The notes below the pieces were generated by a model. The model was not told where the DNA came from, ran no database searches, and saw only the letters and a list, made by a program, of their open reading frames with translations. A program made the translations under genes and the position numbers. A stretch of DNA of 64,000 bases from Gammaproteobacteria bacterium (GTDB lineage: Bacteria; Pseudomonadota; Gammaproteobacteria; Pseudomonadales; Pseudohongiellaceae): contig CAVOCG010000001.1 in NCBI GenBank assembly GCA_963694095.1, forward strand, positions 9,663 through 73,662. Direction: 5' to 3'. Below, in pieces: positions 15,437-53,077 of this stretch. Position 1 is the stretch's first letter. Each line of letters begins with the position of its first letter.

Positions 15437-16284
15437 GTTGCAGCTCCCAGGGGCGTGGCTCGCACCGTAGGGAAGACTTCTCCACCGGTAATCAACTCCC
15501 TTCCACTTGCTGTTTGTAAGATGAGGGCCCCAGTTTCATCAACGCCCTCAGACTTTCCAGTCATCTGAACCTTTCCATGGCAAATATCAACCGACTTATT
15601 ATAGAAGCAATCAGAATGATTCCATTCTTGCTGGTAGGGTGAAAAACCTTCTACCTCAAAACGATGCACATTTTTGACAAGTACATCCAATATACCGGCT
15701 ATGGCTACCTTCCGGTCCACGTCGCTTCCTAAAATCGATGCAATGTCTGTAACCGGCCTATCAATTTTAGCCCGGTCTGCAGGGTTCAGGCAGGCATTGA
15801 CTCCAATTCCGATTACCAGGCACAGCCCCCAATTACCACTCTGCAACTCCAGTAGTATGCCAGCTAGTTTGCTCCCCTCAAACAATACATCATTCGGCCA
15901 TTTCAACTTTAGGCCGTTAATACCTAATTCCTGCAATGCAGTTTTTACGCTCAGAGCAGTTACAAGGCTTAATCCTTGTAGTGCCGCCGAAGGCCCCTGT
16001 ACCGGCCACAATAACGACATATAGATACCAGCTGCAGCAGGGCTAATCCACTTACGCCCCCTTCTTCCACTCCCCTGCTTTTGCGAATCTGCAATAATCA
16101 AAGCTTTCTTTAATTCGCCCGCGCGTATTTTTCGGATAGCTTCCTGATTAGTGGAATCTATCTCGTCATACCAATAGACAGATTGGATTTCTGCTGCGAC
16201 CTCAGGAGAGAGATGTTGCTGCAATTCGTCAGTTTTCATTAAATTCTGCTGGTATATTGCATCGAGATTAAACTTGGGAGACAC
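15433..16284 (-). CDS. birA: Biotin-[acetyl-CoA-carboxylase] ligase, apparently without the N-terminal HTH repressor domain
   Basis: Contains GSGRRGRKW and DSTN motifs. Only ~40 aa precede the catalytic core. Start is uncertain: GTG at 16284 or ATG at 16239. Confidence 0.85.
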   Translation of the reverse strand: MSPKFNLDAIYQQNLMKTDELQQHLSPEVAAEIQSVYWYDEIDSTNQEAIRKIRAGELKKALIIADSQKQGSGRRGRKWISPAAAGIYMSLLWPVQGPSAALQGLSLVTALSVKTALQELGINGLKLKWPNDVLFEGSKLAGILLELQSGNWGLCLVIGIGVNACLNPADRAKIDRPVTDIASILGSDVDRKVAIAGILDVLVKNVHRFEVEGFSPYQQEWNHSDCFYNKSVDICHGKVQMTGKSEGVDETGALILQTASGRELITGGEVFPTVRATPLGAAT

Positions 16285-16313
16285 GATATTTAACTATTGC
16301 CTCTCCATAATTC

Positions 16314-16366
16314 AAAAAAAGGAGCGTGAATTACGTGTATGACACGTTAATTCTACGCTCCTTTTT
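16314..16366. terminator. Bidirectional intrinsic terminator downstream of cstA
   Basis: Long hairpin GGAGCGTGAATTACGTGT-atg-ACACGTTAATTCTACGCTCC, flanked by an A7 run on one side and a T5 run on the other. Confidence 0.8.
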
Positions 16367-16392
16367 GATTAGGGCCAGCTACTAAAGCCCGA

Positions 16393-18117: not shown

Positions 18118-18312
18118 AAAGCACTCTCCCGAATTATTATTATCAATCCCAATCGTCGCATAATATCAACTTACATGCCGAATACACAACAAATGCGGGC
18201 AAACTATTTTCCGCTGGTTACCTGAAATTCCCAACCTGCTATCAATTCTCTGACACGAACAAATAAAGCACCCACTCAAGCAGTAGCTATCTGAATTGCC
18301 TGCGCTGCCTTA

Positions 18313-20019
18313 TCAATTGCTTGGTTTGGCTGTGTGATAAGTCAAATACCCGATAAACATCTCATCCGAGCTCTGCAATCCAAATGTCACTTCGTGGCTA
18401 GGGTTCGGATTAGCGGGGTTAAATTCAGAATTATCGAATGCACCACTTACATGTACCCTGGTTCCTGCAGGCAATGCCATCGGCTTATCAAGTATATAGG
18501 TTGGTTGCCAAGCGTAACTGTAATTAGGCACACTTAATAAATCTGTCAGGGTGCCATCCTGCGCTTCTGCTGTGAATTTCATGTTTTTACCACGAAAGTG
18601 CATATGAGGCCGAAGACCAGTAACGACGATGTTTTCCTCGAAAACATAGGTAGCAGATGCTTTATGATCCTGAGCATAGGCAGGAATTCTAAATCGACTA
18701 GATACCGGCTGCGTGAAGCTCTCATACTTAGGCGGTTCTTCATACATGTATAGACCCAGCAAAGTTTCATCGGTAGCAACTAAGCCATTGCTGGTAAAAT
18801 GAAACTGCATGGACAAGTTGTGACCTTTAGGAATAAAAACGCCAGTCCCGTTAGGAAAGACCATGGCATCAACCTTGCCAGGGGCGTAGCCCTCAAGGAA
18901 ACGAGTAGCGATGGACCCTGTATTGGTTTTATCGCCATCAAATTCTTCTGCCGGTGCAGTTACATAAGTTAACAAATGGTGGAGTACAGACTCATCACCT
19001 GGAATAAATTGTACTGCGCGCACCCACTTGTCTTCTTCGAACGGGAGATCTACAGCGATATTGATGTAATCAAGCACACCGGTGGCTGGAACTTCCATCT
19101 TAGGCGCCTTAACGATGTAGTCAGGCTGGCCTAGTGTCCAGGTTTTCCAGTGTGGGGCCTCTAATTCGGTTAATGGATCGCTGGAATTGGTTCCGCGAGG
19201 AGAACCTGCATCAATCCAGTGGACAAGAGTTTGCAGGTCTTCATTGCTCAAATTGCGAGCATTGGAAAAATGACTAATATTCGGATCAACCTGAGCCGGT
19301 GGCATACGTTTGGTAAGCAATACCTCTCGAATGATAGGTGACCAACCCTGAAGCACTAAATGACTGTTCATAGCGAATGGCCCTATTCCACCTTCTCGAT
19401 GACAAGTGGCACACTGCTTGGTAATTATAGGAGCGACTTCAGTTGCATAATCGGGTGTGGTCTCTGCATGCAAATCCTTAACTGGGTAGGCAAGAGCGCA
19501 GCCTGCTGCTTCTACAATCAAAGTGCTATCTGCGGTTCCTGCTACCTCGGCCGACAGAGATTCGTCAAGCTGAGACTGCAACGGACCCCTATAAATCAGG
19601 GCTAAGCTCTCAGGATCAAGCACCACCACTTCGCCAGCCTTCGACAAATTCAATGTTTCCGAGACGACCTGAGCGTCATCCAACAGCAAGGGAATATCGA
19701 TTTGCCGTCTTGCTATTGCGCTGCGAGCATTTTCCAGATCAAGCTCAACTGAAGAATTGATTAGCAAGAAGTCAACATTTCTTGCTTCCCACTCCGATTG
19801 TTTGGCTTTGAATTGGGTGAGAAAAGAGTCAATTGAATTACAGCTGTCCGCAAAGGACATTATTACCAACGCCTCTTTATTTCGATAGCGGCTAAGTTGA
19901 TGAAAGTTGCCATCACTGTCTAACAACCCGAAATCGCCAATCCTGTTAGGCGCACCACTCGCACCCGCGGATAATGCGCCAACAAGCAGCAAAACTGCCA
20001 TCCAGTGCAATCGCTTCAT
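18313..20019 (-). CDS. Exported Trx-like / haem-c (CxxCH) / PHM-DBH-like copper monooxygenase fusion protein
   Basis: Has a signal peptide and one CATCH haem site in a PSCyt1-like context. The C-terminal part carries HH, H, HxH and M motifs (VLHHLL, MQFHF, PHMHFRG, SSDEMF). ATG at 20019 is preferred over the TTG at 20034. Confidence 0.7.
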   Translation of the reverse strand: MKRLHWMAVLLLVGALSAGASGAPNRIGDFGLLDSDGNFHQLSRYRNKEALVIMSFADSCNSIDSFLTQFKAKQSEWEARNVDFLLINSSVELDLENARSAIARRQIDIPLLLDDAQVVSETLNLSKAGEVVVLDPESLALIYRGPLQSQLDESLSAEVAGTADSTLIVEAAGCALAYPVKDLHAETTPDYATEVAPIITKQCATCHREGGIGPFAMNSHLVLQGWSPIIREVLLTKRMPPAQVDPNISHFSNARNLSNEDLQTLVHWIDAGSPRGTNSSDPLTELEAPHWKTWTLGQPDYIVKAPKMEVPATGVLDYINIAVDLPFEEDKWVRAVQFIPGDESVLHHLLTYVTAPAEEFDGDKTNTGSIATRFLEGYAPGKVDAMVFPNGTGVFIPKGHNLSMQFHFTSNGLVATDETLLGLYMYEEPPKYESFTQPVSSRFRIPAYAQDHKASATYVFEENIVVTGLRPHMHFRGKNMKFTAEAQDGTLTDLLSVPNYSYAWQPTYILDKPMALPAGTRVHVSGAFDNSEFNPANPNPSHEVTFGLQSSDEMFIGYLTYHTAKPSN

Positions 20020-20179
20020 ATCGGATGATTCCAATTAATTGTGTAAATGGACGGATATAAAATCAACTATCAATTGGTAAGTTGCCCAATGATCAGGGCA
20101 CCCTAAGTAGCATCAGCATCCTGGCACACGTATAAAGGAAGCAAGACACTCAAGCTGAACAGTCTAAATGGTTGCCCAC

Positions 20180-21568
20180 CTAATCGCCGGAGGTCACGGT
20201 TTCCTGCATCCGATATTGACTACCAACACCAATTAGCGAAAAACGCCTGAAGACCTCAAACATGACCCAGATAGCCCCGGCAATAATGATTGTCATCATC
20301 CCCCAACGCATCAGTGCAGCGAAAAACAATGAATCAAAGATCGGCATTTGAAATTGATACTGATTAAGCTGGTCGCCGCGATCCAGCATCCAATGCCATG
20401 CGCTGTGGGCAAGCAGAGCTGAAATCAAAATAGTGCCAACCCGTTCCTTAACAAAAACCTTAAACAACAAATTCAAAGCAGGAACAACCAACACAAGCAA
20501 CATGAGCTGCCCCAGTTCAACACCGACATTGAAGGCCAACAGTGATGAAAATAAGTGTCCCCCGGCGAATTGCAGCGTATCGCTGAACATAAATGAAAAA
20601 CCGAACCCATGGATCAAACCGAAGCCGAATGTCACCAGCCAGCGATGCTCAAGTTTTGCTCCTACTATATTCTCAAAAGCCATATACACAATAGAAAGGG
20701 CAATCAGCGTCTCAATCAAAGCTGGAAACCAGATCACATTGGGCGCCACACCAAATGCCGAACCTATGAGGGTGATAGAATGGGCTATAGTAAACGAAGT
20801 AATCACCGGAATTAGACGGCGAATACTCCGCAGCGGAATTACCAAACAAAATAGGAACAACAGATGATCAGCACCTTCCAGAATGTGCACGAAGCCCATT
20901 TTGATAAAGCGATAAACTGCTTGATACCAGCGCGGATCCAGTAACACTACCCCAGGGTTACCAAGGTAGTTAAATACACGCTCGGCGCCATTTTCCGGCA
21001 AAATAAATCGAAGCACCGTCGTGGTTGCACTGGATAACGTTCCTAATTGTGGGTCAACTGAAAAATCAGAGCTTTCAGAGTCAATCGAGTACCGCACCAG
21101 CACATCGAGCACTCCCTGCCGCCAAAACATATCCACATCATCACCCAGAGGCGGGCTTTGGACGTTAGCGAGTGCATCCTCGTAGCTGGTAAAGGATCGA
21201 TCCGAAGGAAGTGAAACCCGGGTCGCCAGCAACTCTTTATCCGTAAGCTCAACCTCATTTTCATAAAAATGCATGGATTCGGTAATGTACACCTGAGCCG
21301 CGTCACGTAGCGCGAACTCGGCTTCAGAGAACTGCAGATAGCCTGGGCCGCGTAACGGGAAACTAATTTCACCAAAAGCTTCCATAGGCACTCTAAGTAT
21401 TGCCGTTAGCTGGTTTCCCTCCGGTTTGACAAATGCATATACAGTGACACGGGATGGAATATCGTGGGCCGAACTGAATGTAGAGAGCAATAACAGCGAG
21501 ACTAGAGCCAATCCCTGCAGCAGTTTGGAGTAAGCGAAGAACGTAGTTGTTCGATGACTTATATTCAT
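20180..21568 (-). CDS. HupE/UreJ-family (type 2) metal permease with a large N-terminal periplasmic domain
   Basis: 462 aa. Signal peptide plus a ~220-aa soluble domain, then TM helices containing GFVHILEGADHLLFLF, the HupE/UreJ signature. Confidence 0.7.
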   Translation of the reverse strand: MNISHRTTTFFAYSKLLQGLALVSLLLLSTFSSAHDIPSRVTVYAFVKPEGNQLTAILRVPMEAFGEISFPLRGPGYLQFSEAEFALRDAAQVYITESMHFYENEVELTDKELLATRVSLPSDRSFTSYEDALANVQSPPLGDDVDMFWRQGVLDVLVRYSIDSESSDFSVDPQLGTLSSATTTVLRFILPENGAERVFNYLGNPGVVLLDPRWYQAVYRFIKMGFVHILEGADHLLFLFCLVIPLRSIRRLIPVITSFTIAHSITLIGSAFGVAPNVIWFPALIETLIALSIVYMAFENIVGAKLEHRWLVTFGFGLIHGFGFSFMFSDTLQFAGGHLFSSLLAFNVGVELGQLMLLVLVVPALNLLFKVFVKERVGTILISALLAHSAWHWMLDRGDQLNQYQFQMPIFDSLFFAALMRWGMMTIIIAGAIWVMFEVFRRFSLIGVGSQYRMQETVTSGD

Positions 21569-21607
21569 AGTTTACTACTATTTATTTTGATAATTGGACA
21601 ATTCGGG

Positions 21608-21742
21608 AATCACTAGTAATTCGGAAAACTTCCTAATCACTAGTGACAGCAAGGATTTTGAGTTATGTGACAAATTTTTACAGACACATCCACTACAAAT
21701 AAGTTGCGAGTATACTGCCTAGGTGGAAGTGAGTATACTGCC
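21608..21742. promoter_or_regulatory. Two pairs of direct repeats in a divergent promoter region
   Basis: AATCACTAGT occurs at 21608-21617 and 21635-21644. GAGTATACTGCC occurs at 21708-21719 and 21731-21742. Each repeat contains a 6-bp palindrome (ACTAGT, GTATAC). Confidence 0.35.
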
Positions 21743-21791
21743 AGCTTGCTCTGAAAGTGATATGGCTCGGGAAATGGGCATGTAGAGGGAA

Positions 21792-22988
21792 ATGAGAATG
21801 ACAAAATTAAAACTAATTATTGGTACTACCTTACTCGTAGCATTGGTTGCACTCGGCGTGGGCCAGTTCAGTATGCAGCAACCAGCAGCAGCGGCGAATA
21901 ATGATGTGCTGGCTCCCGCATTTCTAGTTGATCCTTTGTGGCCCAAACCCTTACCCAACCACTGGGTGATGGGCAGAACTATTGGTGTGGATGTTGATGA
22001 ACGAGACCATATTTTTGTGGTTCACCGGGACCAGGCGGAAATGTTTTCCATGAACACGGAAATTGGTCTGTTTGCAGGTGTTTCGGAGTGTTGCACACCC
22101 GCGCCACCAATTCTTGAATTTGATATTGATGGAAATCTGGTCAACGCCTGGGGCGGTGCAGTCGAAGGCGCCCCCTATGTGTGGCCTGCCTCCAACCACG
22201 GCATTGACGTGGCACCTAATGGTGATGTGTGGATAGGTGGTAATGGTGGCGGTGACTCACACGTACTGGTATTTTCCCGTGACGGCGAATACATCCGTAC
22301 CATAGGTGAACCAGGTAATGATCGTGACAGCAACAGCACCACTCACTTTTCCCAAGTCGCAGAAATCGGCATTGATGGTGCCAACAGCGAAGCCTACATA
22401 GCCGATGGCTACGGTAATAAGCGGGTTGTAGTCGTCGACCTGGCTACCGGCGCATTTAAGCGCTTCTGGGGTGCATACGGCAATACGCCATCTGACGATC
22501 GCCTGCGTTATACACCCGGTGAACCACTGCCACAGCAATTCACCGGACCGGTGCACTGTGCAGAACCCTCTAATGACGGTTTAGTATATGTGTGTGACAG
22601 AACCTCGGACCGCGTTCAGGTATTTCGTACTGACGGTACCTTCGTGAAAGAAGCCCAGTTCACACCCGCCACGCTTTCGCAGGGTTCCACCTGGGATATC
22701 TCCTTTTCAGCAGATACTGAGCAAGAATTCCTGTATCTTGCTGATGGTCAGAACTTCAAGATTTACGTCGTAGATCGTGAGTCGCTGGAAGTATTGTATA
22801 CATTTGGAGATGGCGGCAGACAGCCTGGCTTATTCTATGCCCCGCACAGTATCGCTACTGATTTGCAAGGCAATCTTTACACTACAGAGACCTATGAAGG
22901 TAAACGTGTGCAGAAATTCCTGTTCCAGGGAATGCGCCCTGTAACTGTTCGAGACCGCGCACCTACTTGGCCTGCAGACGAGCTATAA
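21792..22988 (+). CDS. Exported NHL beta-propeller, peptidyl-alpha-hydroxyglycine alpha-amidating lyase (PAL)-like
   Basis: 398 aa with a signal anchor. Block-wise resemblance to animal PAL: FVVHRDQ, NHGIDVAPNGDVWIGG, ADGYGNKRVVVVD, YVCDRTSDRVQVFR, APHSIATDLQGNLYTTE. Confidence 0.65.
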   Translation: MRMTKLKLIIGTTLLVALVALGVGQFSMQQPAAAANNDVLAPAFLVDPLWPKPLPNHWVMGRTIGVDVDERDHIFVVHRDQAEMFSMNTEIGLFAGVSECCTPAPPILEFDIDGNLVNAWGGAVEGAPYVWPASNHGIDVAPNGDVWIGGNGGGDSHVLVFSRDGEYIRTIGEPGNDRDSNSTTHFSQVAEIGIDGANSEAYIADGYGNKRVVVVDLATGAFKRFWGAYGNTPSDDRLRYTPGEPLPQQFTGPVHCAEPSNDGLVYVCDRTSDRVQVFRTDGTFVKEAQFTPATLSQGSTWDISFSADTEQEFLYLADGQNFKIYVVDRESLEVLYTFGDGGRQPGLFYAPHSIATDLQGNLYTTETYEGKRVQKFLFQGMRPVTVRDRAPTWPADEL

Positions 22989-23023
22989 TTAGCCCATATC
23001 TCCTGCGCCATCTGGATCTAAGA

Positions 23024-23062
23024 AAAAGCTGTGTCGAAGCACTTCGATGCAGCTTTTTTTGG
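23024..23062 (+). terminator. Intrinsic terminator after the first PAL-like gene
   Basis: AAGCTGTGTCGAAGCACTTCGATGCAGCTT hairpin followed by a T7 run. Confidence 0.75.
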
Positions 23063-23200
23063 CCCCATGCACAACCGCCGGTAATTCGTCTATTTCACCC
23101 TGAAATTTGTGAATTCCTGTTTACCCCCCCGCTCAATAGATGCTAGTGTATGTTTGTTAGGACTAGTTTCTTAAATTCAATAGCTATTCAGGACAATATT

Positions 23201-24388
23201 ATGCAAATCACAACAAAAAGAATAATCTATTCTGCTGTAGCCATTACCCTCCTGCTATCTCTCGGGTTTGGTCAAAGTCGATTACAAGATAACGCCATTG
23301 CAGCGAATAATGATCGACTGGCACCGCAATTTATTGTGGACCCCTATTGGCCACAGCCATTACCCAATCAGTGGGTACTTGGACGCGCCATCGGCGTTGG
23401 GGTGGACGAGCGAGATCATGTGTATATCGTACACAGGACCCAAGACAGCAATTTTATGAATCAGGAAATTGCCCTGAATTCAGGCAGAGCCGAGTGCTGC
23501 ACCCAAGCTCCGCCCATTATCGAATTTGACAGCGAAGGTAATCTTATAAATGCCTGGGGAGGCCCTGGTGAAGGCTATACCTGGCCTGAGTCCAACCATG
23601 GGTTAGAGATAGCACCTAATGGCGATATCTGGATTGGCGGAAATGGGGGCGGTGATTCCCATGTATTGGTCTTTACTCGTGATGGAACCTTCGTAAGAGA
23701 GATTGGTATCCCTGGCGAAGATATAAACAGTAATAGCCAGACTTCCTACGGGCGTGTCGCAGAAATTGCCTTTTATCCTGCAGCTAATGAGATGTATTTT
23801 GCGGATGGATATGGCAATAAAAGAGTAGCAGTAGTCGATGCATCAACAGGGGCATTCAAGCGTTATTGGGGTGCTTATGGTAACCGCCCCTCTGATGATC
23901 GAGTGACCTATACACCAGGCGAGACGCTTCCTCAGCAATTTGTTGGTCCGGTGCATTGCGCGGAGCCTTCACTTGATGACCTGATCTATGTATGTGACAG
24001 AGGGGCAGACAGGATTCAGGTTTTCCGCCCAGATGGAACTTTCGTCAAAGAAGCCTTGGTGGCTCCATTGACGCTGTCAGGTTCAACCTGGGATATTACT
24101 TTTTCCAGGGATGCGGATCAGGAATTCATCTTTGTTGCTGATGGCTCCAATATGAAAGTGCATATCCTTGATCGAGACTCACTTGAAGTCCTCAGCACAT
24201 TTGGTCAGGGCGGCAGGCAGCCTGGCACTTTCTTCGCGCCTCACAGCATTGTATCTGACTCCAAAGGGGATCTTTACACTACCGAGACGTACGAAGGAAA
24301 GCGGGTGCAGAAATTTCTAAATCAAGGTTTACTCCCATTGAGCACCGCAAGATCAGGTGCACCATGGCCAGCCAATGAACTGAATTGA
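23201..24388 (+). CDS. Exported NHL beta-propeller, PAL-like (tandem paralogue)
   Basis: Collinear with 21792-22988 (IVHRTQD, ADGYGNKRVAVVD, YVCDRGADRIQVFR, APHSIVSDSKGDLYTTE). ATG at 23201 gives a signal peptide. An alternative ATG lies at 23150. Confidence 0.65.
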   Translation: MQITTKRIIYSAVAITLLLSLGFGQSRLQDNAIAANNDRLAPQFIVDPYWPQPLPNQWVLGRAIGVGVDERDHVYIVHRTQDSNFMNQEIALNSGRAECCTQAPPIIEFDSEGNLINAWGGPGEGYTWPESNHGLEIAPNGDIWIGGNGGGDSHVLVFTRDGTFVREIGIPGEDINSNSQTSYGRVAEIAFYPAANEMYFADGYGNKRVAVVDASTGAFKRYWGAYGNRPSDDRVTYTPGETLPQQFVGPVHCAEPSLDDLIYVCDRGADRIQVFRPDGTFVKEALVAPLTLSGSTWDITFSRDADQEFIFVADGSNMKVHILDRDSLEVLSTFGQGGRQPGTFFAPHSIVSDSKGDLYTTETYEGKRVQKFLNQGLLPLSTARSGAPWPANELN

Positions 24389-24403
24389 TTTTTGTTTCGT
24401 GAT

Positions 24404-24468: not shown

Positions 24469-24903
24469 CTAATTTGGATTCACGGCTAACCAGGTTATCC
24501 CGCTGAGTATTGAGTTTCTGCTGGGCAGCTCTTCACTTCCCGCTGGAAATGTATTCTTCTCCATGACAAAGGCGAGTATATCTACCTTTTCCGAACGCCT
24601 GACCGCCCCGGCATTGCCCAAAGGCATGGTGTCTCGAATGCGTTGAAACAAGGTTGCCACAGGCATTCCATCATAATTCCATATGAAATCTCCCTGGGCC
24701 AGCCCGGGGGCCATATCAATCCCAGCCAGAGACGCACCATGACATTCAGAACAACTTTCCCCATAGGCAACTTCGCCTCGCCTAGCTTGTTCCTCGGTAA
24801 ACACGCCATCCCACACTGACGGGGCTTGCTGTGCAATCACCCAGTGGAAACTGGTAACAACAATAGAGAGTATTCCTAAGGACAGCAAAATTCTGCTTTT
24901 CAT
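24469..24903 (-). CDS. Small periplasmic mono-haem c-type cytochrome
   Basis: 144 aa with a signal peptide and a single CSECH motif. Confidence 0.75.
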   Translation of the reverse strand: MKSRILLSLGILSIVVTSFHWVIAQQAPSVWDGVFTEEQARRGEVAYGESCSECHGASLAGIDMAPGLAQGDFIWNYDGMPVATLFQRIRDTMPLGNAGAVRRSEKVDILAFVMEKNTFPAGSEELPSRNSILSGITWLAVNPN

Positions 24904-26181: not shown

Positions 26182-27918
26182 ATGTCCAAAATATCAACGC
26201 GAGTCAACTACGTAGCTACTACTATGTTAACGGCTTTGCTTAATGTTTCAGCCAGTGCCGCAGACCGGATCAGTGATTTTTCACTAATCGACCATACAGG
26301 CAAATACCATCAGCTGACTCGTTATTCCAATCGAGACGCCATTGTATTGATCGTGCACGACGGGGGTAGCGAGGTAGCAGAAGATGTTGCTTCTGACCTA
26401 GCCAAGGTGGCAGAGCACTTCGCAGAAAGCCGAATTAAATTTTTCATGATTAATTCCTCAGGAATTGAAGACAAGGCAATTATCGCCGCTGCAGCAAAAG
26501 ATGCGGAGATAGAGTTCCCCATACTCATTGACGAAACCCAACTAGTAGCGGAAGAGTTAGGTATTACCCGTGCCTTTGAGGCCCTTATTATCAACCCTTC
26601 AAGCAAAGAAGTACTGTACCGAGGAGCGATTAATGATCGGTTTTCCGAGGGCAGCACTCGCCGCAGAGCCAGAGACCATTACCTGCAAGATGCCCTCCAA
26701 TCCATGCTAGACGGTGAAGAGATCACGGTTGCGGCAACTGTGAGCAAGGGAGGTGCGATTCAATTTCAATCGCGCGATGTGCACCAGGCGGCTGGTATTT
26801 CCTATGCCCGGGAAGTTGCCCAGATTCTAGAAGCACGCTGTGTGACTTGTCATCAGGAAGGGGGTATTGCCCCGTTTGCCATGAGCAGCCATCAAATGGT
26901 ACAAGGCTGGTCTCCTATGATCAGGGAAACCCTGTACACAAAACGCATGCCGCCAGGCCAAATTGACAATGACTACCTGAAAAACTTCCACAATATAAAT
27001 CACATAACACCAGAGGAAACCCAAACTTTAGTTCACTGGATCGACAATGGATCAATCAATAATGATGACTCCGATCCGCTGACTATGACCGAACTCGCAT
27101 CGAATTCTTGGTCAAATGGTGAGCCGGATATTATCGTACCAATTCCCTCCCAGTCCATTCCAGCTAGCGGTGTAGTGGAATACCGCAATCTGCAAATACC
27201 CCTGGATATTGACGATGACATTTGGGTAAAGGCTGTTGAATTCTTACCCGGTGATACTTCCGTACTGCATCATATTATCGCTTTTTCATACGGCCCTGGT
27301 GGCGTGAATCAATTTGAAATTTTAAATCAGGGAATTGGACTTGGCGCCTATGCTCCGGGCAACAAACTTAATCTATACCCAAAAGATACTGGCTATCCGT
27401 TAGAAGTCGGTGGTGGATTAATGCTGCAGTTACACTACACCACATCAGGTAGAGAGGCTGTTGACGCCTCTTCAATTGGCTTGTATTTGTATGATGAAGA
27501 GCCACGCCAGGCAATATTAGGCGGTTCGGCTGCGATAATGGACCTGCACATTCCTGCTAATGTTGAGGATCATCAGCTTGTCGCCACCAAGTTATTTCGC
27601 AATGACGCTTACCTCACAATGGTCGGCCCGCACATGCACTATCGTGGCAAGGAAGCCCGTTTCACTCTGAAGTACCCTGATGGGTCCGAGGAAATGATCC
27701 TAAACGTGCCAAATTATCAGTTCAACTGGCAAAAAACTTATGATTTTATCGAACCCAGATTCGTCCCAGCAGGAACTGAGATGGTGTTTGAAGGTGCTTT
27801 CGACAATTCAGAAATGAACCCGTTCAACCCGGATCCAACAATCGAAATTACGTGGGGGGAACAAACCTGGAATGAAATGTTTTTTGGCTTCATTCGATAT
27901 TACGATGCCTTAGACTAG
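26182..27918 (+). CDS. Exported Trx-like / haem-c / PHM-DBH-like copper monooxygenase fusion protein (paralogue 2)
   Basis: 578 aa. CVTCHQEGGIAPFAM...KRMPP, then VLHHII, LQLHY, PHMHYRG, NEMF. The Trx-like part has no Cys at the CxxC position. Confidence 0.7.
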   Translation: MSKISTRVNYVATTMLTALLNVSASAADRISDFSLIDHTGKYHQLTRYSNRDAIVLIVHDGGSEVAEDVASDLAKVAEHFAESRIKFFMINSSGIEDKAIIAAAAKDAEIEFPILIDETQLVAEELGITRAFEALIINPSSKEVLYRGAINDRFSEGSTRRRARDHYLQDALQSMLDGEEITVAATVSKGGAIQFQSRDVHQAAGISYAREVAQILEARCVTCHQEGGIAPFAMSSHQMVQGWSPMIRETLYTKRMPPGQIDNDYLKNFHNINHITPEETQTLVHWIDNGSINNDDSDPLTMTELASNSWSNGEPDIIVPIPSQSIPASGVVEYRNLQIPLDIDDDIWVKAVEFLPGDTSVLHHIIAFSYGPGGVNQFEILNQGIGLGAYAPGNKLNLYPKDTGYPLEVGGGLMLQLHYTTSGREAVDASSIGLYLYDEEPRQAILGGSAAIMDLHIPANVEDHQLVATKLFRNDAYLTMVGPHMHYRGKEARFTLKYPDGSEEMILNVPNYQFNWQKTYDFIEPRFVPAGTEMVFEGAFDNSEMNPFNPDPTIEITWGEQTWNEMFFGFIRYYDALD

Positions 27919-44917: not shown

Positions 44918-45046
44918 CGGTAGTGGGTTTTAGGCTGAGAATCAACCAATACACATCGGAACTGCTTTCACTGATTGACTGGACTTTTGCCTATCAGATT
45001 CGTAACCTTCCAGATACCATCAATAAAAACAAAAATTGGAGGCAAT

Positions 45047-45856
45047 ATGATCTGGAATTTCAGGGTGTGGTTAAAGCTGGCCTTGTTATTAGAACTACTG
45101 GTCATTGGCCTATGGGGCTTCGCCGCATCCGCACAGGATGCAGGAAACCTTTACGATACGGCAGTCGATGTCCGCCTTGGTGAGCGTTATTTTCAGCGTC
45201 AATGTACCCGCTGCCATGGTGAAGACGCAAAAGGCAACGATGAGACTGGCGCACCTGATTTAACGGGGAGGCTTTCCCGGGCCAGCACCGTTGCAGGTAT
45301 TTATAGAATCCTGCGCGAGGGAATAGCTGGCACAGCGATGCTTCCCTTAAGCCCAGACACACCGGATCCAACTGTTTGGCAACTGGTAGCTTACGTCGAT
45401 TCACTAAGCACAGACCCTGCCAATATCAACCTGCCGGGCTCCGCTTCAAACGGTCAGACCCTTTATGCAAGTAAAGGTGGCTGTAGCACCTGCCACATGA
45501 TCCGTGGCAACGGTGGCAGACTCGGACCGGATCTAAGCCGGGTTGGCGAGCGTCGTGACCCAGATGAGTTAATGTCAGACATTGTCAGTCCGCATGAAGA
45601 AGTACTGCCGCGCTGGTGGACAGTCAAGGCGTTACTCGAGAATGGCTCCACGGTCGAAGGACTCAGAATGAATGAAGACACATTCACATTGCGGGTCATC
45701 GATCGAAATTCAGAATTGTGGTCATTACCCAAGAATCAAATAGCGTCCTTCGAGCGCATTCAGAGCTCGACCATGCCAAGCTACTTACAGACACTAGCCG
45801 AGAGCGAGTTAGACGACCTGGTTGCCTATCTCTTCTCTTTGCGAAAGGAGAATTAA
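45047..45856 (+). CDS. Exported di-haem c-type cytochrome
   Basis: ATG at 45047 lies 4 nt after a GGAGG SD. Has a signal peptide and two CxxCH sites (CTRCH, CSTCH). Confidence 0.8.
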   Translation: MIWNFRVWLKLALLLELLVIGLWGFAASAQDAGNLYDTAVDVRLGERYFQRQCTRCHGEDAKGNDETGAPDLTGRLSRASTVAGIYRILREGIAGTAMLPLSPDTPDPTVWQLVAYVDSLSTDPANINLPGSASNGQTLYASKGGCSTCHMIRGNGGRLGPDLSRVGERRDPDELMSDIVSPHEEVLPRWWTVKALLENGSTVEGLRMNEDTFTLRVIDRNSELWSLPKNQIASFERIQSSTMPSYLQTLAESELDDLVAYLFSLRKEN

Positions 45857-45858
45857 TC

Positions 45859-47493
45859 ATGCAACGCCTTGTGATTTTGTTTTTTGTATTCATGTCTTCG
45901 GTGCAGACTCTGGCGCAGGAAGAACCCTTTGCCACCGTCATAACTCCAGATTTTTCATCAGTGACCTGGGACCGATTGGTTAATTCAAACGACGAGCCTG
46001 AAAACTGGCTCATGTATTCCGGTTCGTTGAGCAGTCAGCGTTATAGTGCTCTCGATCAAATCAATACTGAAAATGTTAGCAATCTGGAATTCAAGTGGTC
46101 TTATCAAATACCGGTGATCGATAGAGCGGAAACAGTGCCACTGGTTGTCGATGGCATCATGTTTATTACTGAGGCTCCCAGCAATGTGGTAGCAGTTGAT
46201 GCGGTAACTGGACGCCAATACTGGCGCTATAACCACGATCTACCTGAAGATCTGCGCATTTGCTGTGGTCGCAACAACCGGGGCGTTGCCATACTGGGCG
46301 AGACCTTATTTATGAGTACACTTGATGCCCATTTGGTTGCGCTAGATGCCCGTACTGGCAATTTACTCTGGGACGTGGAAGTTGCTGATTACGCATCCGG
46401 ATACAGTAAAACCGCTGCACCGCTGATTGTCAAAGACACGGTGGTAACTGGTATTGCTGGTGGCGAATTTGGGATTCGCGGATTTATTGATGGCTACGAT
46501 CCAGAAACGGGTGACCGTAAGTGGCGCACCTATACCATAGCAGGACCAGACAATCCCGATGTGGCGAGCTGGGCAGGTGATTCATGGGAGACCGGTGGCG
46601 GCGCCAGTTGGATAACGGGTTCCTATGATCCCGAACTTAATTTGATTTATTGGGGCACTGGCAACCCAGGACCTGACTGGAACGGGGATGCGCGACTAGG
46701 TGACAATCTCTACTCGGATTCGGCACTGGCACTGAATGGCGATACCGGCGAGCTGGAATGGTACTTTCAGTTCACCCCACATGATGTGCATGATTGGGAC
46801 GCTATCCAGGTGCCAATTCTTGCTGATATCGAATATGAAGGCGAGATGCGCAAGGTAATAATGTGGGCTAATCGCAATGCGTTCTACTACACCCTGGACC
46901 GTGTAACCGGTGAATTCCTGGTAGGCAAACCCTATGCCACCCAAACTTGGGCACTGGGCCTGGATGCGAACGGCCGACCTATACGAGCGCCTAACACATT
47001 TCCAACCTATGAAGGGGTGGTCGTATCACCCTCGGTTGGCGGCGCTACCAATTGGTGGTCACCTGGTTATAGTCCAAAGTCTGGGTTGTTTTATGTCAAT
47101 GCCTTCGACGCAGAACAGCGGTACGTAAAACGTGATGAAGAGTATGAACGGGGTGAACGGTTCACCGGAGGCGGTGGTTCTTATACGCGCCCAATGGACA
47201 CTTATTACAGCGCCCTTCGGGCTATTGATCCAGCAACGGGCGACATAGCTTGGGAGTTTCCAGTGCAGCCTCGCTCATCTGCCGGTATCACCACCACGGC
47301 TGGTGACCTAATATTAAGCGGTAGCGTTGACGGGTATTTCTACGCACTTGATGCCAACACAGGCGATGAACTGTGGCATATCTCGCTGGGAAGAAGAGTG
47401 CATGCCGCGCCAATGACATATGCCGTAGATGGTAAACAGTACATGACGGTCGCTGCTGGCAATGTAGTTTACACATTTAGCTTGCGCGATTAG
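45859..47493 (+). CDS. PQQ-dependent dehydrogenase, methanol/ethanol (quinoprotein ADH) family
   Basis: ATG at 45859 follows an AAGGAG SD and lies 2 nt after the cytochrome stop. Has a signal peptide, the vicinal Cys-Cys (RICCGRNNRG), W-motif propeller repeats and HDWD. Confidence 0.85.
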   Translation: MQRLVILFFVFMSSVQTLAQEEPFATVITPDFSSVTWDRLVNSNDEPENWLMYSGSLSSQRYSALDQINTENVSNLEFKWSYQIPVIDRAETVPLVVDGIMFITEAPSNVVAVDAVTGRQYWRYNHDLPEDLRICCGRNNRGVAILGETLFMSTLDAHLVALDARTGNLLWDVEVADYASGYSKTAAPLIVKDTVVTGIAGGEFGIRGFIDGYDPETGDRKWRTYTIAGPDNPDVASWAGDSWETGGGASWITGSYDPELNLIYWGTGNPGPDWNGDARLGDNLYSDSALALNGDTGELEWYFQFTPHDVHDWDAIQVPILADIEYEGEMRKVIMWANRNAFYYTLDRVTGEFLVGKPYATQTWALGLDANGRPIRAPNTFPTYEGVVVSPSVGGATNWWSPGYSPKSGLFYVNAFDAEQRYVKRDEEYERGERFTGGGGSYTRPMDTYYSALRAIDPATGDIAWEFPVQPRSSAGITTTAGDLILSGSVDGYFYALDANTGDELWHISLGRRVHAAPMTYAVDGKQYMTVAAGNVVYTFSLRD

Positions 47494-47610: not shown

Positions 47611-47819
47611 GGCAATGCAACGAATTGCAACCATTGCCATCTTATAATTTACATGTCGGCCCCACATGGCTAGACTCTGTATCCAATGGCGATAATCCTC
47701 CGTTTTATTGTGGGTATAGCCCTTGTAAGTAGTACAGTGCGCCAGAGAATGTTTACGAACGTAATATTACTGGAAAAATTAACGGAGTTATTCGCAATAA
47801 CATTTTGGAGACAACACCA

Positions 47820-48749
47820 ATGAACAAGATTCACAAAATACTCATTAACCTGGCTATGCTTCTGTTAGCCGTGGCAGTGCAGGCTCAGGACTCACCACCA
47901 TTATTATTGACGCTGGCACCCCCTGATGGTTTCGCTATAATTCCTGTCATGGAAGGCTGGACTGCCAATGAAGATGACACAGTATCCTATTCTTTTGGTG
48001 CGATAAATCGAGGTACCGAGGCCGCTGTGGATATTCCTGTGGGCGAGAGAAATTACATTGAACCAGCACGATTCAATGGCATGCAGCCAACCCATTTCCC
48101 ACCAGGTCATATAGTTGGAGTATTTACAGTAACTGTTCCTGCAAATATGACCGATGTAGACATTTGGTGGCATCTCATTTCAGAAGACGGAGAGGAGCTG
48201 AAAGTACCAGGGCGAAGCACTGCTGGCGCTTACGAACTCGACTTCATACTCCCTAGACCCCAGGGTTCCTTGCAGCCCCTGGCGGGTTTTGGCGAGAACG
48301 GCGACACTTCTGCTGGCCTGCTAGCCCGAGTGGAAGATTATCAGGGTTCAGTATCTGTGGGAGATCCCGTAACTTTGACGGCAAATGTTATTGATCGCTC
48401 AGATCGAGACCCTACTGATCCCCGTTTCGAAGAGCCATTGGACATTGGAGTGATGTGGTTTCACCACCAGGGTCCAGGTATGGTTGAATTCACCAGACAC
48501 GCATCAACCCCTGAGCCGGAAGAGGTGGATCTAGATTCACCCCGGGGCAGGCGTGCAGCCAGAAACCAGGGGCCTAATCGGGTGAACGTTGCTGGCCCAA
48601 GCGGCGTGGCAAACGTCACTGCTACCTTTTCAGCGCCAGGTGAGTATATCTTGCGCACCAGAGCGGATACCTTCGCAGGCTCGGATAGCTCGGAAGGCGA
48701 CCAGTGCTGTTGGAGTAATATTTATCAAAGAATAACTGTATCACCCTGA
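47820..48749 (+). CDS. Exported protein of unknown function
   Basis: ATG at 47820 with a GGAG SD. Has a signal peptide (LLLAVAVQAQ) and no recognised motifs. Confidence 0.6.
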   Translation: MNKIHKILINLAMLLLAVAVQAQDSPPLLLTLAPPDGFAIIPVMEGWTANEDDTVSYSFGAINRGTEAAVDIPVGERNYIEPARFNGMQPTHFPPGHIVGVFTVTVPANMTDVDIWWHLISEDGEELKVPGRSTAGAYELDFILPRPQGSLQPLAGFGENGDTSAGLLARVEDYQGSVSVGDPVTLTANVIDRSDRDPTDPRFEEPLDIGVMWFHHQGPGMVEFTRHASTPEPEEVDLDSPRGRRAARNQGPNRVNVAGPSGVANVTATFSAPGEYILRTRADTFAGSDSSEGDQCCWSNIYQRITVSP

Positions 48750-48922: not shown

Positions 48923-50251
48923 ATGAGAATAATGCAAAAGACAAGCTTGCTGACTAGCGCCGCAGTAATGGTGTTTGGGCTTCAAGCACAGGCACAGGAA
49001 CAGATTACTTACGCTGATCATGTCGCCCAGATTATCACAGACAACTGTGTTGTCTGTCATCAGGAAGGTGGAATCGGCCCTATGCAATTCACCAGCTATG
49101 AGCAGGTGCGTCCTTGGGCTCCTCTTATTCAGATGAAAGTCGCAAATCGGGAAATGCCTCCCTATGCATACGACCACGGCATTGGCATCCAGGACCTGCA
49201 AGGCGACTGGCGCTTAGCACAGGAAGATATCGATACTATCGTAAACTGGGTAAGCCAGGGTGCGCCTCTTGGCGATTGGGGTGATAGATCACATCCTATA
49301 GCTGATGTTAGGGACCCTAATGAGTGGAATTTCACCGAAGATTACGGCAAACCTGATCTCGTTGTTGCGTCAACTCCTATAGACATCCCTGCTAATGGCA
49401 ATGACATGTGGCACTCGCCCTACAATCAAATCGATAATCCTTCAGATCGCTGCATCCAGGCGATGCAGGTTAAGCCACAAGCCCAGTCTAAAGCGGTGGT
49501 ACACCACGCCAACACTTCCGTCGAAGTACTAAATGAAGATGGAGAGTATGAGCGCCATAGCCAGTTGAATGAGTATGCCATGGGCAAATGGGGTGAAGTC
49601 ATCCCCGAAGGCGTATGTCGCACTTTGCCTAAAGATTCACGCGTCAAGTGGACTATACATCTATTTCCTGGTGGCGTTGGACCAACAGCAGAGGGTCAGA
49701 TAATTGAGAATAATGTAGTCGAGCTCGGGCTCTGGCTCCATGACGAGGGCTATGAGACGGTGGCTCCTTACAAGCAAGACCTAGCATCGTATGGGATTAG
49801 AGAAGGCTATGTAGGCGGAGAGTTGATCATACCTCCTCATGGCACCATCATGACACAGGGGTTTCATTCTTTTGACCACCCAATTCGATTAGACAGCTTC
49901 CAGCCACATGGCCACCTGCGTATGAATGCGGCTTCACTGGAAATTTTCTATCCGAAAACTGGTCGAACTGAAGCGATCAGCCAGGTTTCAAAGTGGAGTG
50001 CTACTTGGCATCACAGCCACTTGTATGAGCCTGAATCAGCGCCGTTGTTGCCAGCTGGTGCGGTACTGGTGATCAAGCAGTGGTATGACAATACAGCCAA
50101 TAACCCCAACAACCCTGATCCTGATCAATGGGTCTTTGGGGGCAGTCGCACAGGTGATGAAATGTCACACGCTTGGTTAGCTATCACTCACCTTGACGAT
50201 GAAGGCTATGAAGCACTTCTCTCAGAGCGTGAAGCGACTGACGCAGACTAG
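48923..50251 (+). CDS. Exported haem-c / PHM-DBH-like copper monooxygenase fusion protein (short form, no Trx domain)
   Basis: 442 aa. CVVCHQEGGIGPMQF...REMPP, then VVHHAN, IHLFPGG, PHGHLRM, GDEMSH. Confidence 0.7.
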   Translation: MRIMQKTSLLTSAAVMVFGLQAQAQEQITYADHVAQIITDNCVVCHQEGGIGPMQFTSYEQVRPWAPLIQMKVANREMPPYAYDHGIGIQDLQGDWRLAQEDIDTIVNWVSQGAPLGDWGDRSHPIADVRDPNEWNFTEDYGKPDLVVASTPIDIPANGNDMWHSPYNQIDNPSDRCIQAMQVKPQAQSKAVVHHANTSVEVLNEDGEYERHSQLNEYAMGKWGEVIPEGVCRTLPKDSRVKWTIHLFPGGVGPTAEGQIIENNVVELGLWLHDEGYETVAPYKQDLASYGIREGYVGGELIIPPHGTIMTQGFHSFDHPIRLDSFQPHGHLRMNAASLEIFYPKTGRTEAISQVSKWSATWHHSHLYEPESAPLLPAGAVLVIKQWYDNTANNPNNPDPDQWVFGGSRTGDEMSHAWLAITHLDDEGYEALLSEREATDAD

Positions 50252-51736: not shown

Positions 51737-53077
51737 CTAATCGACGTCGGCTTCTGTCCGCTCTGCGAGCAGTCCCTCATAGCCTTCTTCGTCAAGATGA
51801 GTAACAGCTATCCACGCGTGTGACATTTCATCACCTGTACGACTGCCTCCAAAGACCCATTGATCAGGATCAGGGTTGTTGGGGTTATTGGCTGTATTGT
51901 CATACCACTGCTTGATCACCAGTACCGCACCAGCTGGCAACAACGGCGCTGATTCAGTCTCATACAAGTGGCTGTGATGCCAAGTAGCACTCCACTTTGA
52001 AATCTGGCTGATCGCTTCAGTTCGACCAGTTTCCGGATAGAAAATTTCCAGTGAAGCCGCATTCATACGCAGGTGGCCATGTGGCTGAAAGCTATCGATT
52101 CGAACCGGGTGGTCAAAAGAGTGAAAACCCTGTGTCATCGTTGTGCCGTTAGGAGGAACGATTAACTGCCCACCCACGTAGCCCCCTCTAATACCGTACA
52201 ATCTTAAGTCCTGTTTGTAGGGATCTGTTTGCGCTATGAAATCTTCATCATGGAACCAGATACCGATTTCAACAACGTTATCCAAAACCGCTTTGTTTTG
52301 CGCAGCGCCACCGACCCCTCCTGGGAACATATGAATATCCCAAGCAACACGAGAATTGGCTGGTATTGTGCGGCATACACCAGGAGGCATGATCTCACCC
52401 CATTTACCCATAGCGTATTCAGTTAATTGGCCGTATTTCTCATACTCACCATCTTCGTTGAGAACCTCAACATCAGAATTAGCATGGTGAACCACCGATT
52501 TGGCATCGCCTCGGGGTTTCACCTGAATTGCCTGGATGCAACGATCCTGAGTCACTCCAGTAGGAACGTGATGCTTGTGCCAAAGATCAGTTCCATTAGC
52601 AGGAATATCGATTGCAATTGACGGAATAATCAATGACGGAGGACCAAACTGCCCGGCAAAGTTCCATTCATCAACGTCTGCAATATCAGCTACCAATGGC
52701 TCACGGTCGCCCCAATTACCTAGTGGCGCACCCTGGTCTACCCAGTTTACGATAGTATCGATATCTTCCTGTGCTAAGCGCCAGTCGCCTTGCAGGTCCT
52801 GGATACCAATGCCGTGGTCGTATGCATAGGGAGGCATTTCCCGATTTGCGACTTTCATCTGAATAAGAGGAGCCCAAGGGCGCACCTGATCAAAAGTCTC
52901 GAACTGCATTGGTCCGATGCCACCTTCACGGTGACAAACCACACAGTTTTCATTAATAATCTTGGCTACGTGATCTGCGTAAGTGATTTGATCCTGCGCC
53001 TGAGCTTGAAGCCCAAACACAAGCACTGCAGCGCCGCTTAGGGCTGCCCAAATGCGCGTTTTAAAAAGAATACTCAT
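51737..53077 (-). CDS. Exported haem-c / PHM-DBH-like copper monooxygenase fusion protein (short form, paralogue)
   Basis: 446 aa. CVVCHREGGIGPMQF, VVHHAN, IHMFPGG, PHGHLRM, GDEMSH. Confidence 0.7.
   Translation of the reverse strand: MSILFKTRIWAALSGAAVLVFGLQAQAQDQITYADHVAKIINENCVVCHREGGIGPMQFETFDQVRPWAPLIQMKVANREMPPYAYDHGIGIQDLQGDWRLAQEDIDTIVNWVDQGAPLGNWGDREPLVADIADVDEWNFAGQFGPPSLIIPSIAIDIPANGTDLWHKHHVPTGVTQDRCIQAIQVKPRGDAKSVVHHANSDVEVLNEDGEYEKYGQLTEYAMGKWGEIMPPGVCRTIPANSRVAWDIHMFPGGVGGAAQNKAVLDNVVEIGIWFHDEDFIAQTDPYKQDLRLYGIRGGYVGGQLIVPPNGTTMTQGFHSFDHPVRIDSFQPHGHLRMNAASLEIFYPETGRTEAISQISKWSATWHHSHLYETESAPLLPAGAVLVIKQWYDNTANNPNNPDPDQWVFGGSRTGDEMSHAWIAVTHLDEEGYEGLLAERTEADVD

Follow-up and report, generated by a model that had tools for sequence, protein, structure and literature searches.

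The textbook examples of non-coupled binuclear copper monooxygenases are peptidylglycine alpha-hydroxylating monooxygenase (PHM), which serves in the amidation of peptide hormones, and dopamine beta-monooxygenase (DBH), which makes noradrenaline. Nearly all that is known of them comes from animals, where they take ascorbate as their reductant, and the route by which electrons travel to and across their two copper sites, CuH and CuM, is still debated. Here we describe a bacterial gene, W1, whose product belongs to the same superfamily by predicted fold and by putative ligands, and which would differ from the described members in its electron donor. W1 lies at positions 18313..20019, on the minus strand, of a 64,000-nucleotide stretch of DNA from a Gammaproteobacteria bacterium (family Pseudohongiellaceae; contig CAVOCG010000001.1). 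We refer to this whole stretch as the window; judged by synteny and by its nearest homologues, it stems from a marine gammaproteobacterium of Pseudohongiellaceae/SAR86-like type. The window also encodes three paralogues of W1, called W2, W3 and W4. In our judgement, W1 is probably a secreted, periplasmic monooxygenase with two coppers that are fed by a haem c.

One of its relatives is PHM, the catalytic core of the eukaryotic peptide-amidating enzyme PAM (PDB entries 1PHM, 1OPM and 1SDW). Like W1, PHM has a core of two beta-sandwich subdomains (Foldseek E 5e-13, TM 0.6-0.7), and its copper ligands follow in the same order and at approximately the same spacing, HH...H...HxH...M, with the same Glu-Met motif. 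W1 likewise has an Arg two residues before HxH and a Tyr four residues after the Met, and the pairing of PHM with peptidyl-alpha-hydroxyglycine alpha-amidating lyase (PAL) inside PAM is echoed by a PAL-like gene near W1. The differences lie in several places. Sequence identity between W1 and PHM or DBH is about 15-17%; neither sequence nor profile searches returned a PHM chain at E<=1, and the sole profile match was DBH; N316 of PHM is not conserved in the W1 family, whereas an Arg after the second histidine motif (HxHxR), absent from PHM, is invariant there. In PAM the two activities share one protein, whereas in the W1 cluster the PHM-like and PAL-like parts lie on separate genes. Finally, W1 is bacterial and periplasmic, and it carries an N-terminal c-type cytochrome (in this family often together with a thioredoxin-like, or Trx-like, module), which implies a haem reductant instead of ascorbate.

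The group formed by DBH, MOXD1 and tyramine beta-monooxygenase (4ZEL) provides the only profile match in the PDB, which extends over both subdomains and aligns five His ligands. DBH also has an extra module ahead of its core, as W1 does. In DBH this module is a DOMON domain, a distant and conceptual parallel; the DOMON fold binds haem in other proteins. The module of W1, in contrast, is a covalent c-type cytochrome, and W1 differs further in having no dimerisation domain and in substrate-binding residues that are not comparable with those of DBH.

Two other groups of enzymes resemble W1 in their wiring. The three-domain copper nitrite reductases are periplasmic copper enzymes with a fused cytochrome c donor, and thus share the design of W1; they are, however, cupredoxin trimers whose nitrite reduction is unrelated, and the analogy implies no homology. 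Copper oxygenases that are reduced through a haem by a flavo- or quinoprotein dehydrogenase are represented by the lytic polysaccharide monooxygenases (LPMOs), with the cytochromes of cellobiose dehydrogenase or of a pyrroloquinoline quinone (PQQ)-dependent pyranose dehydrogenase, and by the proposed association of pMMO with methanol dehydrogenase. These run parallel to the operons described below in which PQQ dehydrogenase, cytochrome and cytochrome-PHM-like genes occur together. Yet the LPMO and pMMO systems use a histidine brace or CuMMO site, haem b rather than haem c, and separate partner proteins, and again no homology is implied.

The putative copper core and its haem-c module

W1 is an intact open reading frame (ORF) of 568 amino acids and a stop codon, with an ATG start. 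A further TTG start upstream, at 20034, is unlikely to be used, because a protein from public metagenomes that is 100% identical to W1 (P0001) is also 568 amino acids long. A preliminary description of this DNA, which gave no strand, had divided the protein into a signal peptide, a thioredoxin/AhpC-like module, a haem-c module and a C-terminal core resembling PHM and DBH. Each of the four parts can be verified in W1, and all the motifs quoted there occur in the ORF (ADSCNS, CATCH, KRMPP, WIDAG, VLHHLL, MQFHF, RPHMHFRG and SSDEMF). The first part, about residues 1-22 (MKRLHWMAVLLLVGALSAGASG; 19954..20019, minus strand), reads by eye as a Sec-type signal peptide, with a basic n-region, a hydrophobic core and an AxA-like end.

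The C-terminal core consists of two subdomains, both on the minus strand. The N-subdomain (about residues 288-440; 18700..19158) is supported by the family profile, the AlphaFold2 model and Foldseek, and contains the putative CuH ligands H347, H348 and H407. The C-subdomain (about residues 441-568; 18316..18699), supported by the Pfam family PF03712 and the family profile, contains the putative CuM ligands H472, H474 and M554, along with R470, R476 and Y558. PF03712 (Cu2_monoox_C) covers residues 457-564 of W1 with 26.7 bits, against a gathering cut-off of 23. The match that includes both catalytic subdomains comes from a profile of 25 diverse cores (A2), whose sole match in the PDB was human dopamine beta-hydroxylase, 4ZEL, with E 5.3e-8. 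In the alignment of A2 with 4ZEL, the profile segments vHHv, fqlHy and PHmHlrg are placed on VHHMEVF, LEVHYH and LHTHLTG, that is, on the CuH and CuM histidines of DBH. In terms of W1, H347 and H348 pair with VHHMEVF, H407 with EVHYH, and H472 and H474 with LHTHLTG.

The predicted structure agrees with the profile. When the core was modelled with AlphaFold2 from the family alignment, the result had a predicted local distance difference test score (pLDDT) of 88.2 and a predicted TM score (pTM) of 0.84. When this model is compared with the PDB by Foldseek, PHM and DBH structures fill the first 31 places (E 5e-13 to 5e-8, TM 0.56-0.71, 277-324 aligned columns). The matches that follow are unrelated viral jelly-roll capsids with E>3e-5, which are weaker by a factor of at least about 600.

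We searched residues 280-568 of W1 against 1.84 billion cluster representatives. Matches were found in 7,570 clusters (50% identity) at E<=1e-3, and in 3,964 at E<=1e-10. Conservation was counted over 146 sequences taken from the 150 best representatives, no two of them more than 50% identical: H347, H407, E553 and M554 are present in all 146, H348 in 145, and H472 and H474 in 144 each. The Arg two residues after HxH, R476, is nearly as constant (144/146), and we infer from the sequence that it should face the same side of its strand as the CuM histidines. Within the window, an alignment of W1 to W4 leaves H347, H348, H407, H472, H474, E553 and M554 invariant in W1 numbering, together with C203, C206, H207 and M239-P240-P241 of the haem module; thus the ligand set is constant across the four paralogues, as the preliminary description had it. 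Such a pattern of motifs in diverged sequences is far beyond chance, and we reject the idea that the His and Met motifs arose fortuitously. Judged by sequence and by modelled fold, the core of W1 is a genuine homologue of PHM and DBH with all six putative copper-ligand positions.

Several results count against this assignment and should be set beside it. PF03712 reaches only 15.2 bits in W2 and has no match in W3 or W4, so that the membership of these three rests on the family profile. The N-terminal Pfam family, PF01082 (Cu2_monooxygen), has no match at E<=1 in any of W1 to W4; of the profile searches proposed in the preliminary description, therefore, Cu2_monoox_C succeeded for W1 whereas Cu2_monooxygen and PSCyt1 did not. 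A phmmer search of the PDB with W1 alone returned neither PHM nor DBH. Furthermore, no alignment with PHM or DBH at the level of residues covers the Met ligand: the DBH alignment ends before it, and a profile of the C-subdomain by itself has no match in the PDB. The pair E553-M554, whose Met would be the counterpart of M314 in PHM and M487 in DBH, does fall inside the PF03712 match and reads SSDEM as in PHM.

A few members of the family depart from the rule. In P0121 and P0126 the CuM histidines have been lost (RARMNFRG and RPRMNQRG), in one of them the second CuH histidine as well (VIHNL), while the core is otherwise intact. Such proteins may be paralogues that are non-catalytic or differently metallated.

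Between the Trx-like module and the core, residues 186-287 of W1 (19159..19464, minus strand) form a mono-haem cytochrome c module, with CxxCH at residues 203-207 (19399-19413) and a putative axial ligand, Met239, in an MPP motif (19303-19305). The CxxCH and MPP motifs are invariant: they occur in 4/4 paralogues, in 119-120 of 120 W1 orthologues and in 21/21 diverse family members. Over residues 194-270 the Pfam families Cytochrome_CBB3, Cytochrom_C and Haem_bd all match below their cut-offs (20.1 vs 27 bits). The closest PDB matches to a profile of the module are haem-c domains, those of hydrazine synthase alpha and CcoP (E 7e-4 to 3e-3). W1 thus has the features of a class-I-type c cytochrome, namely CxxCH, a distal Met and an export leader, with sub-threshold Pfam matches. 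The haem-c module of the preliminary description is therefore upheld by its motifs, but the label PSCyt1-like that it was given is not, as Pfam PSCyt1 does not match.

This fusion is not a curiosity of one genome. Of the family representatives, 133 extend 100 residues or more upstream of the core, and 130 of these have a CxxCH no more than 130 residues ahead of it (median 81 residues); by this measure the fusion to haem c is the rule of the family. Since the fusion is nearly universal, we argue that ascorbate is not the donor, and we know of no evidence that ascorbate serves as a periplasmic reductant in bacteria. With a haem donor in place of ascorbate, the family is better called a variant of the copper type II monooxygenases than an ordinary member of that group.

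All four paralogues carry the cytochrome c module and the core. Applied to the ORFs of the window, the core hidden Markov model (HMM) picks out W1 to W4 (E 4e-113 to 4e-69) and no other ORF at E<=10, which bears out the count and the positions reported in the preliminary description. W2 (26182..27918, plus strand; 578 amino acids) has Trx-like, cytochrome c and PHM-like parts, as W1 does; W3 (48923..50251, plus strand; 442 amino acids) and W4 (51737..53077, minus strand; 446 amino acids) have the cytochrome c and PHM-like parts and no Trx-like module.

The mechanism that we consider probable for W1 can be put as follows. Periplasmic carriers would reduce the tethered haem c; candidate carriers are the small cytochrome c encoded in the W1/W2 cluster and, for the Trx-less paralogues, the PQQ dehydrogenase with its dihaem cytochrome. 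From the haem, which would thus stand in for ascorbate, electrons would move one at a time to CuH and from there to CuM, where O2 would be bound and a C-H bond of the bound substrate hydroxylated. If so, the tethered c-type haem would give copper enzymologists an electron donor that is built in, visible by spectroscopy and can be triggered, and intramolecular electron transfer and O2 activation would become directly testable. The preliminary description knew of no biochemical characterisation of such an arrangement. Consistent with this, a literature search, which covered few subscription journals, brought up no publication about cytochrome-fused PHM-like proteins, or about PAL-like proteins, of bacteria.

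PAL-like neighbours and the possible substrate of W1

The strongest functional clues come from two groups of neighbouring genes that the preliminary description did not mention: PAL-like genes beside W1 and W2, and a PQQ-dehydrogenase operon beside W3. In the W1/W2 region the genes are arranged as CstA (-), W1 (-) and a HupE/UreJ_2-family gene (-); then NHL1 (+) and NHL2 (+); then a small cytochrome c (-) and an Endonuclease_NS-like gene (-); and finally W2 (+), an M19 dipeptidase (+) and a cupin (+). A scan of positions 16000-30500 for promoters and terminators did no better than shuffled sequence, and we accordingly make no claim about operons beyond gene order and strand.

NHL1 (21792..22988, plus strand), which is divergent from the HupE-like and W1 genes, encodes a secreted six-bladed NHL propeller resembling PAL. 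NHL2 (23150..24388, plus strand) is its paralogue, 65% identical and with the same set of conserved Arg, His and Tyr residues. Both match rat PAL (3FVZ) over their full length in a single stretch (phmmer E 4.6e-10 for NHL1 and 4.9e-6 for NHL2). An AlphaFold2 model of NHL1 (pLDDT 80.8) has PAL 3FVZ as its top Foldseek match in the PDB (E 1.8e-17, TMt 0.77); the runner-up is another NHL domain, at E 2.9e-15, and the NHL domains of TRIM and Thin trail PAL.

The catalytic set of PAL comprises the zinc ligands H585, H690 and H786, together with Tyr654 and the substrate-binding residues Arg533 and Arg706. These residue numbers are reportedly those of Chufan et al. 2009. We cross-checked the numbering of V520, R533, H585, Y654 and H690 by counting along the sequences of 3FVZ and 5WM0. 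In the alignment, R79, H136 and Y207 of NHL1 fall on R533, H585 and Y654 of PAL, all of them invariant, and a His stands at or next to H690 and H786. R270 and R274 of NHL1 fall in the blade motif of R706, by position and motif only. The residues R79, H136, Y207, H255, R270/R274 and H352 are invariant in 22 orthologues of NHL1.

NHL1 also differs from PAL in several respects. Identity is about 19%, the Ca ligand D787 appears to be Ser, and NHL1 and NHL2 are stand-alone secreted bacterial proteins, to be regarded as putative lyases. In searches with the C-terminal half of the alignment in view, the NHL domains of TRIM and Thin outranked PAL, and so the equivalences to H690 and H786 rest on positions: H255 is one residue away from H690 in the ungapped alignment, and H352 corresponds to H786 by spacing.

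The remaining genes of the cluster are as follows. The gene that adjoins W1 on its upstream side, in the same orientation, encodes the HupE/UreJ_2-family membrane protein (20180..21568, minus strand; Pfam PF13795, E 8e-40), which is present in every related locus. This protein has a periplasmic N-terminal region of about 220 amino acids, and its predicted leader ends ...FSSA|HDIPS, so that the mature N-terminus would be His. It may have a role in handling a metal, perhaps copper. The candidate electron donor of the cluster is a small secreted mono-haem cytochrome c (24469..24903, minus strand) with a CSECH motif and a weak Cytochrome_CBB3 match; in related loci its place is taken by an unannotated gene of 180-196 amino acids with no Pfam match on record, a correspondence by position. 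The secreted Endonuclease_NS-like protein (25034-25852, minus strand) matches only the second half of its domain, with E 9e-19, and is a member of the cluster in all relatives. No NCBIfam model matches either the HupE-like or the Endonuclease_NS-like protein.

The cluster of PHM-like, PAL-like, HupE-like and cytochrome genes recurs in seven related loci (L001-L005, L126 and L127), from four or five genome types, and all seven keep a W2-type gene. PAL-like genes reach 3-4 copies in some of them, L126 having four NHL copies. L127 has no W1-type gene and retains the HupE-like, NHL, Endonuclease_NS-like and W2-type genes, with an unannotated gene of 185 amino acids at the position of the small cytochrome. 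The PHM-like/PAL-like pairing is thus conserved across Pseudohongiellaceae-type genomes; the seven loci belong to one lineage, so the evidence lacks phylogenetic independence. Genes for handling peptides also occur nearby: CstA and the M19 dipeptidase here, and an amidohydrolase and a penicillin amidase in relatives. Such genes for peptide transport and hydrolysis would fit a catabolic role.

Two residues of W1 itself bear on the substrate. R470 and Y558 are constant among W1 orthologues (120/120) and stand at the positions of R240 and Y318 in PHM. The latter residues reportedly hold the carboxylate of the substrate (Prigge et al. 1999).

From these observations we tentatively propose that the W1/W2 cluster encodes a split, haem-driven, PAM-like pathway, a possibility to which we attach low confidence. 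In this lineage the substrate of W1 would be a glycine-terminated or N-acylglycine-like carboxylate, and its alpha-hydroxyglycine product would then be cleaved to an amide and glyoxylate by NHL1 and NHL2, acting as PAL-like zinc lyases. The role of such a pathway would probably be the breakdown of peptide-like dissolved organic matter. If the pairing with PAL-like genes is functional, peptide alpha-amidation or the oxidative removal of glycine would take place outside the eukaryotes, with a bearing on the origin of PAM, the enzyme that processes neuropeptides. A broader form of the proposal is likewise doubtful: that bacteria hold a split equivalent of PAM, driven by the respiratory chain, which removes C-terminal glycine oxidatively from peptides or N-acylglycines without any part for ascorbate, and that the W1 family makes up a large and so far overlooked class of periplasmic copper monooxygenases. 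Were it true, some members would be fed directly by PQQ dehydrogenases in a cascade of hydroxylation and dehydrogenation, and the family could represent the prokaryotic ancestry of PHM, DBH and PAM.

The wider family and the W3/W4 region

The same haem-fed, two-copper chemistry might instead act on a substrate other than a glycine-extended amide, such as an amine of the DBH type, a glycan, or one of the alkyl or aromatic constituents of dissolved organic matter, with the NHL propellers acting elsewhere. We hold this to be possible, though not something to be relied upon, and it is the wider family that speaks for it.

A scan for a degenerate DNA motif encoding D-N-S-x2-N-x2-N-P-x-P-x3-V-x2-G-x5-E-M found at least 120 loci, and all 120 that were listed contain a member of the family. 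They come from Acidobacteriota (many), Planctomycetota, Gammaproteobacteria including Pseudohongiella, Verrucomicrobiota, Gemmatimonadota, Bdellovibrionales, Alphaproteobacteria (Phenylobacterium, Hyphomonadaceae and Kordiimonas) and others. When these loci are combined with L001-L005, giving 125, most family ORFs are Trx-less: at least 66 have the arrangement cytochrome-core and at least 28 the arrangement Trx-cytochrome-core, the rest being split or truncated.

This survey weighs against a peptide-directed pathway for the family in general. The PAL-like pairing is confined to one lineage, for among the 120 listed loci, which represent other phyla, none has a PAL-like gene within the 8-kb stretch around the family gene; across phyla the family has no constant PAL-like partner. 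An Arg at the position of PHM R240 occurs in only 11/146 representatives and is absent from W2, W3 and W4; in W2, the paralogue that always accompanies the PAL-like genes, the residue is Gly. Indeed, the equivalents of R240 and Y318 together are retained neither in W2 to W4 nor in most of the family. Accessory domains found elsewhere in the family (CBM48/AMPK1_CBM, He_PIG Ig, EF-hands, DUF3471, an N-terminal MBOAT, TPR repeats and tandem duplication) point from their sequences to varied substrates, not necessarily peptides. The more unusual fusions include a C-terminal CBM48/AMPK1_CBM, an N-terminal MBOAT acyltransferase, EF-hands, He_PIG Ig and a tandem duplicated Trx-cytochrome-core protein of 1251 amino acids (P0400, P0215, P0122, P0181, P0202 and P0242); they hint at substrates in some branches that are related to glycans or to the cell surface. 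In one locus (L129, 5042-9347) a family member follows a TonB-dependent receptor on the same strand after 17 bp, an arrangement that suggests a nutrient-uptake locus. Other gene contexts are heterogeneous. On the opposite side, a non-amide substrate would leave unaccounted for what sets the lineage of W1 apart, namely the conserved PAL-like genes, sometimes in 3-4 copies, which keep the catalytic Arg, His and Tyr of PAL, and the R240 and Y318 equivalents that are constant among W1 orthologues.

Only two kinds of neighbour recur across the 120 listed loci, and both accompany Trx-less members: PQQ dehydrogenases and a protein that we call unk314. Three further apparent neighbour families, present in 108, 17 and 14 of the listed loci, proved to be antisense shadow ORFs of the family gene itself and were discarded. 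In the window, both kinds of neighbour are found in the W3/W4 region, whose order is dihaem cytochrome c (+), PQQ-type dehydrogenase (+), unk314 (+), W3 (+), NHL3 (-) and W4 (-).

The dihaem cytochrome c gene (44975-45856) and the gene of the PQQ-type dehydrogenase, of the methanol/ethanol family, occupy 44975..47493 on the plus strand, upstream of W3. The dehydrogenase scores 567 bits against TIGR03075 (cut-off 480), and 530 bits against the 'acido-empty-quinoprotein' (group A) model, which is below the cut-off of that model. Its listed start, a GTG at 45718, overlaps the cytochrome gene; translation probably begins instead at the Met at 45859, where MQRLVILFF... reads as a signal peptide. 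PQQ-type dehydrogenase genes lie beside Trx-less family members in 9 of the 120 listed loci, in other phyla.

The secreted protein unk314 (47805..48749, plus strand), encoded immediately upstream of W3, has no match in Pfam or NCBIfam. Homologues of about 310 amino acids occur in 12 of the 120 listed loci (L013, L022, L038, L062, L069, L072, L080, L081, L089, L098, L115 and L118), from several phyla, always on the same strand as an adjoining Trx-less family member. Their conserved motifs are EGW..N.DGS, FGY.NRN, GQPT.F, W..(Y/H)(R/Q)GPG and, at the C-terminus, QCCW(S/T)N with vicinal cysteines. This distribution suggests that unk314 is probably a dedicated partner of the Trx-less subfamily.

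For W3 and W4, then, the obvious candidate for the electron source, going by the genes present, is the PQQ dehydrogenase with its cytochrome. The association of Trx-less forms with dehydrogenases of the PQQ alcohol type, which counts in favour of a non-amide substrate, would also suit a cascade in which a substrate is hydroxylated and then dehydrogenated; for W3 and W4 such a cascade is possible but speculative. Between W3 and W4 lies NHL3 (50332-51519, minus strand), a generic NHL propeller with PH motifs in several blades and weak ScyE/ScyF-like matches, in which we found no specific similarity to PAL, NHL1 or NHL2.

The thioredoxin-like module and other uses of the fold

Residues 28-127 of W1 (19639..19938, minus strand) match the AhpC/TSA family of thioredoxin-fold proteins, Pfam PF00578, with 28.7 bits, and W2 does so with 37.6 bits; both exceed the gathering cut-off of 26, so that a thioredoxin fold can be accepted. 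The module of W1 contains a single Cys, C60, and no CxxC, which confirms the degenerate state ascribed to it in the preliminary description. C60 is kept in 120/120 orthologues, in the context F-A/D-x-S-C with Asp or Ala at -3, and thus lacks the Thr/Ser-x-x-Cys of peroxiredoxins as well as the CxxC pair. W2 has no Cys at this position in the alignment of the four paralogues. By its sequence, the module of W1 has lost the catalytic CxxC or peroxidatic motif and cannot serve as a peroxidase or a disulfide reductase. We reject a peroxiredoxin function for want of the motif, and a role as a Sco-like copper chaperone for want of both CxxxC and His.

These facts bear on a further alternative, in which the PHM fold and its metal sites are put to another use, either in a cytochrome-c-dependent oxidase or peroxidase (acting on O2, H2O2 or a nitrogen oxide) or in a protein for electron transfer or copper handling. 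The tethering of a cytochrome c to a copper centre has the precedent, mentioned above, of the three-domain copper nitrite reductases; a peroxiredoxin-like module is attached, and sources name the protein a peroxiredoxin or an alkyl hydroperoxide reductase; no substrate is known; and a protein resembling HupE/UreJ metal transporters is conserved next to W1. We nevertheless regard this alternative as improbable. The full CuH and CuM ligand sets are invariant, including the Met that is typical of an O2-activating CuM, whereas the peroxiredoxin-like module lacks Thr-x-x-Cys and, in W2, any Cys at that place. The module is also dispensable, given the 66 or more Trx-less members, W3 and W4 among them. 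Moreover, several diverged paralogues per genome and a variety of binding domains are more typical of catabolic enzymes with specific substrates. Our preferred assignment thus remains a haem-fed monooxygenase.

A last reading takes the database labels at face value, with W1 as a peroxiredoxin or thiol-disulfide oxidoreductase whose C-terminal region is an unrelated beta-sandwich with chance motifs; most sources do annotate a redoxin, AhpC or cytochrome c, and AhpC-TSA is above threshold, but with no CxxC or peroxidatic motif, many members without the module, and six near-invariant ligand positions in a core that matches DBH by profile and PHM and DBH by fold, this reading is effectively refuted.

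The labels themselves deserve comment. Source databases describe members of the family as 'redoxin domain-containing protein', 'peroxiredoxin', 'alkyl hydroperoxide reductase', 'thiol-disulfide isomerase' or 'mono/dihaem cytochrome c', and no NCBIfam model matches any of W1 to W4. These names reflect the accessory module and not the catalytic core. Members of this very large family abound in marine metagenomes and are routinely given the wrong name, peroxiredoxin or cytochrome c; models of organic-matter turnover may therefore leave out a whole class of periplasmic oxygenases. A few JGI entries are labelled 'copper type II ascorbate-dependent monooxygenase-like', which indicates that automated pipelines have glimpsed the domain.

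Two other genes of the window may be recorded here. Just upstream of the cytochrome/PQQ cluster, a protein of 826 amino acids (42437-44917, minus strand) contains two radical-SAM/CofH-like regions and resembles a fused FO synthase, and a TonB-dependent receptor is encoded at 56715-58898.

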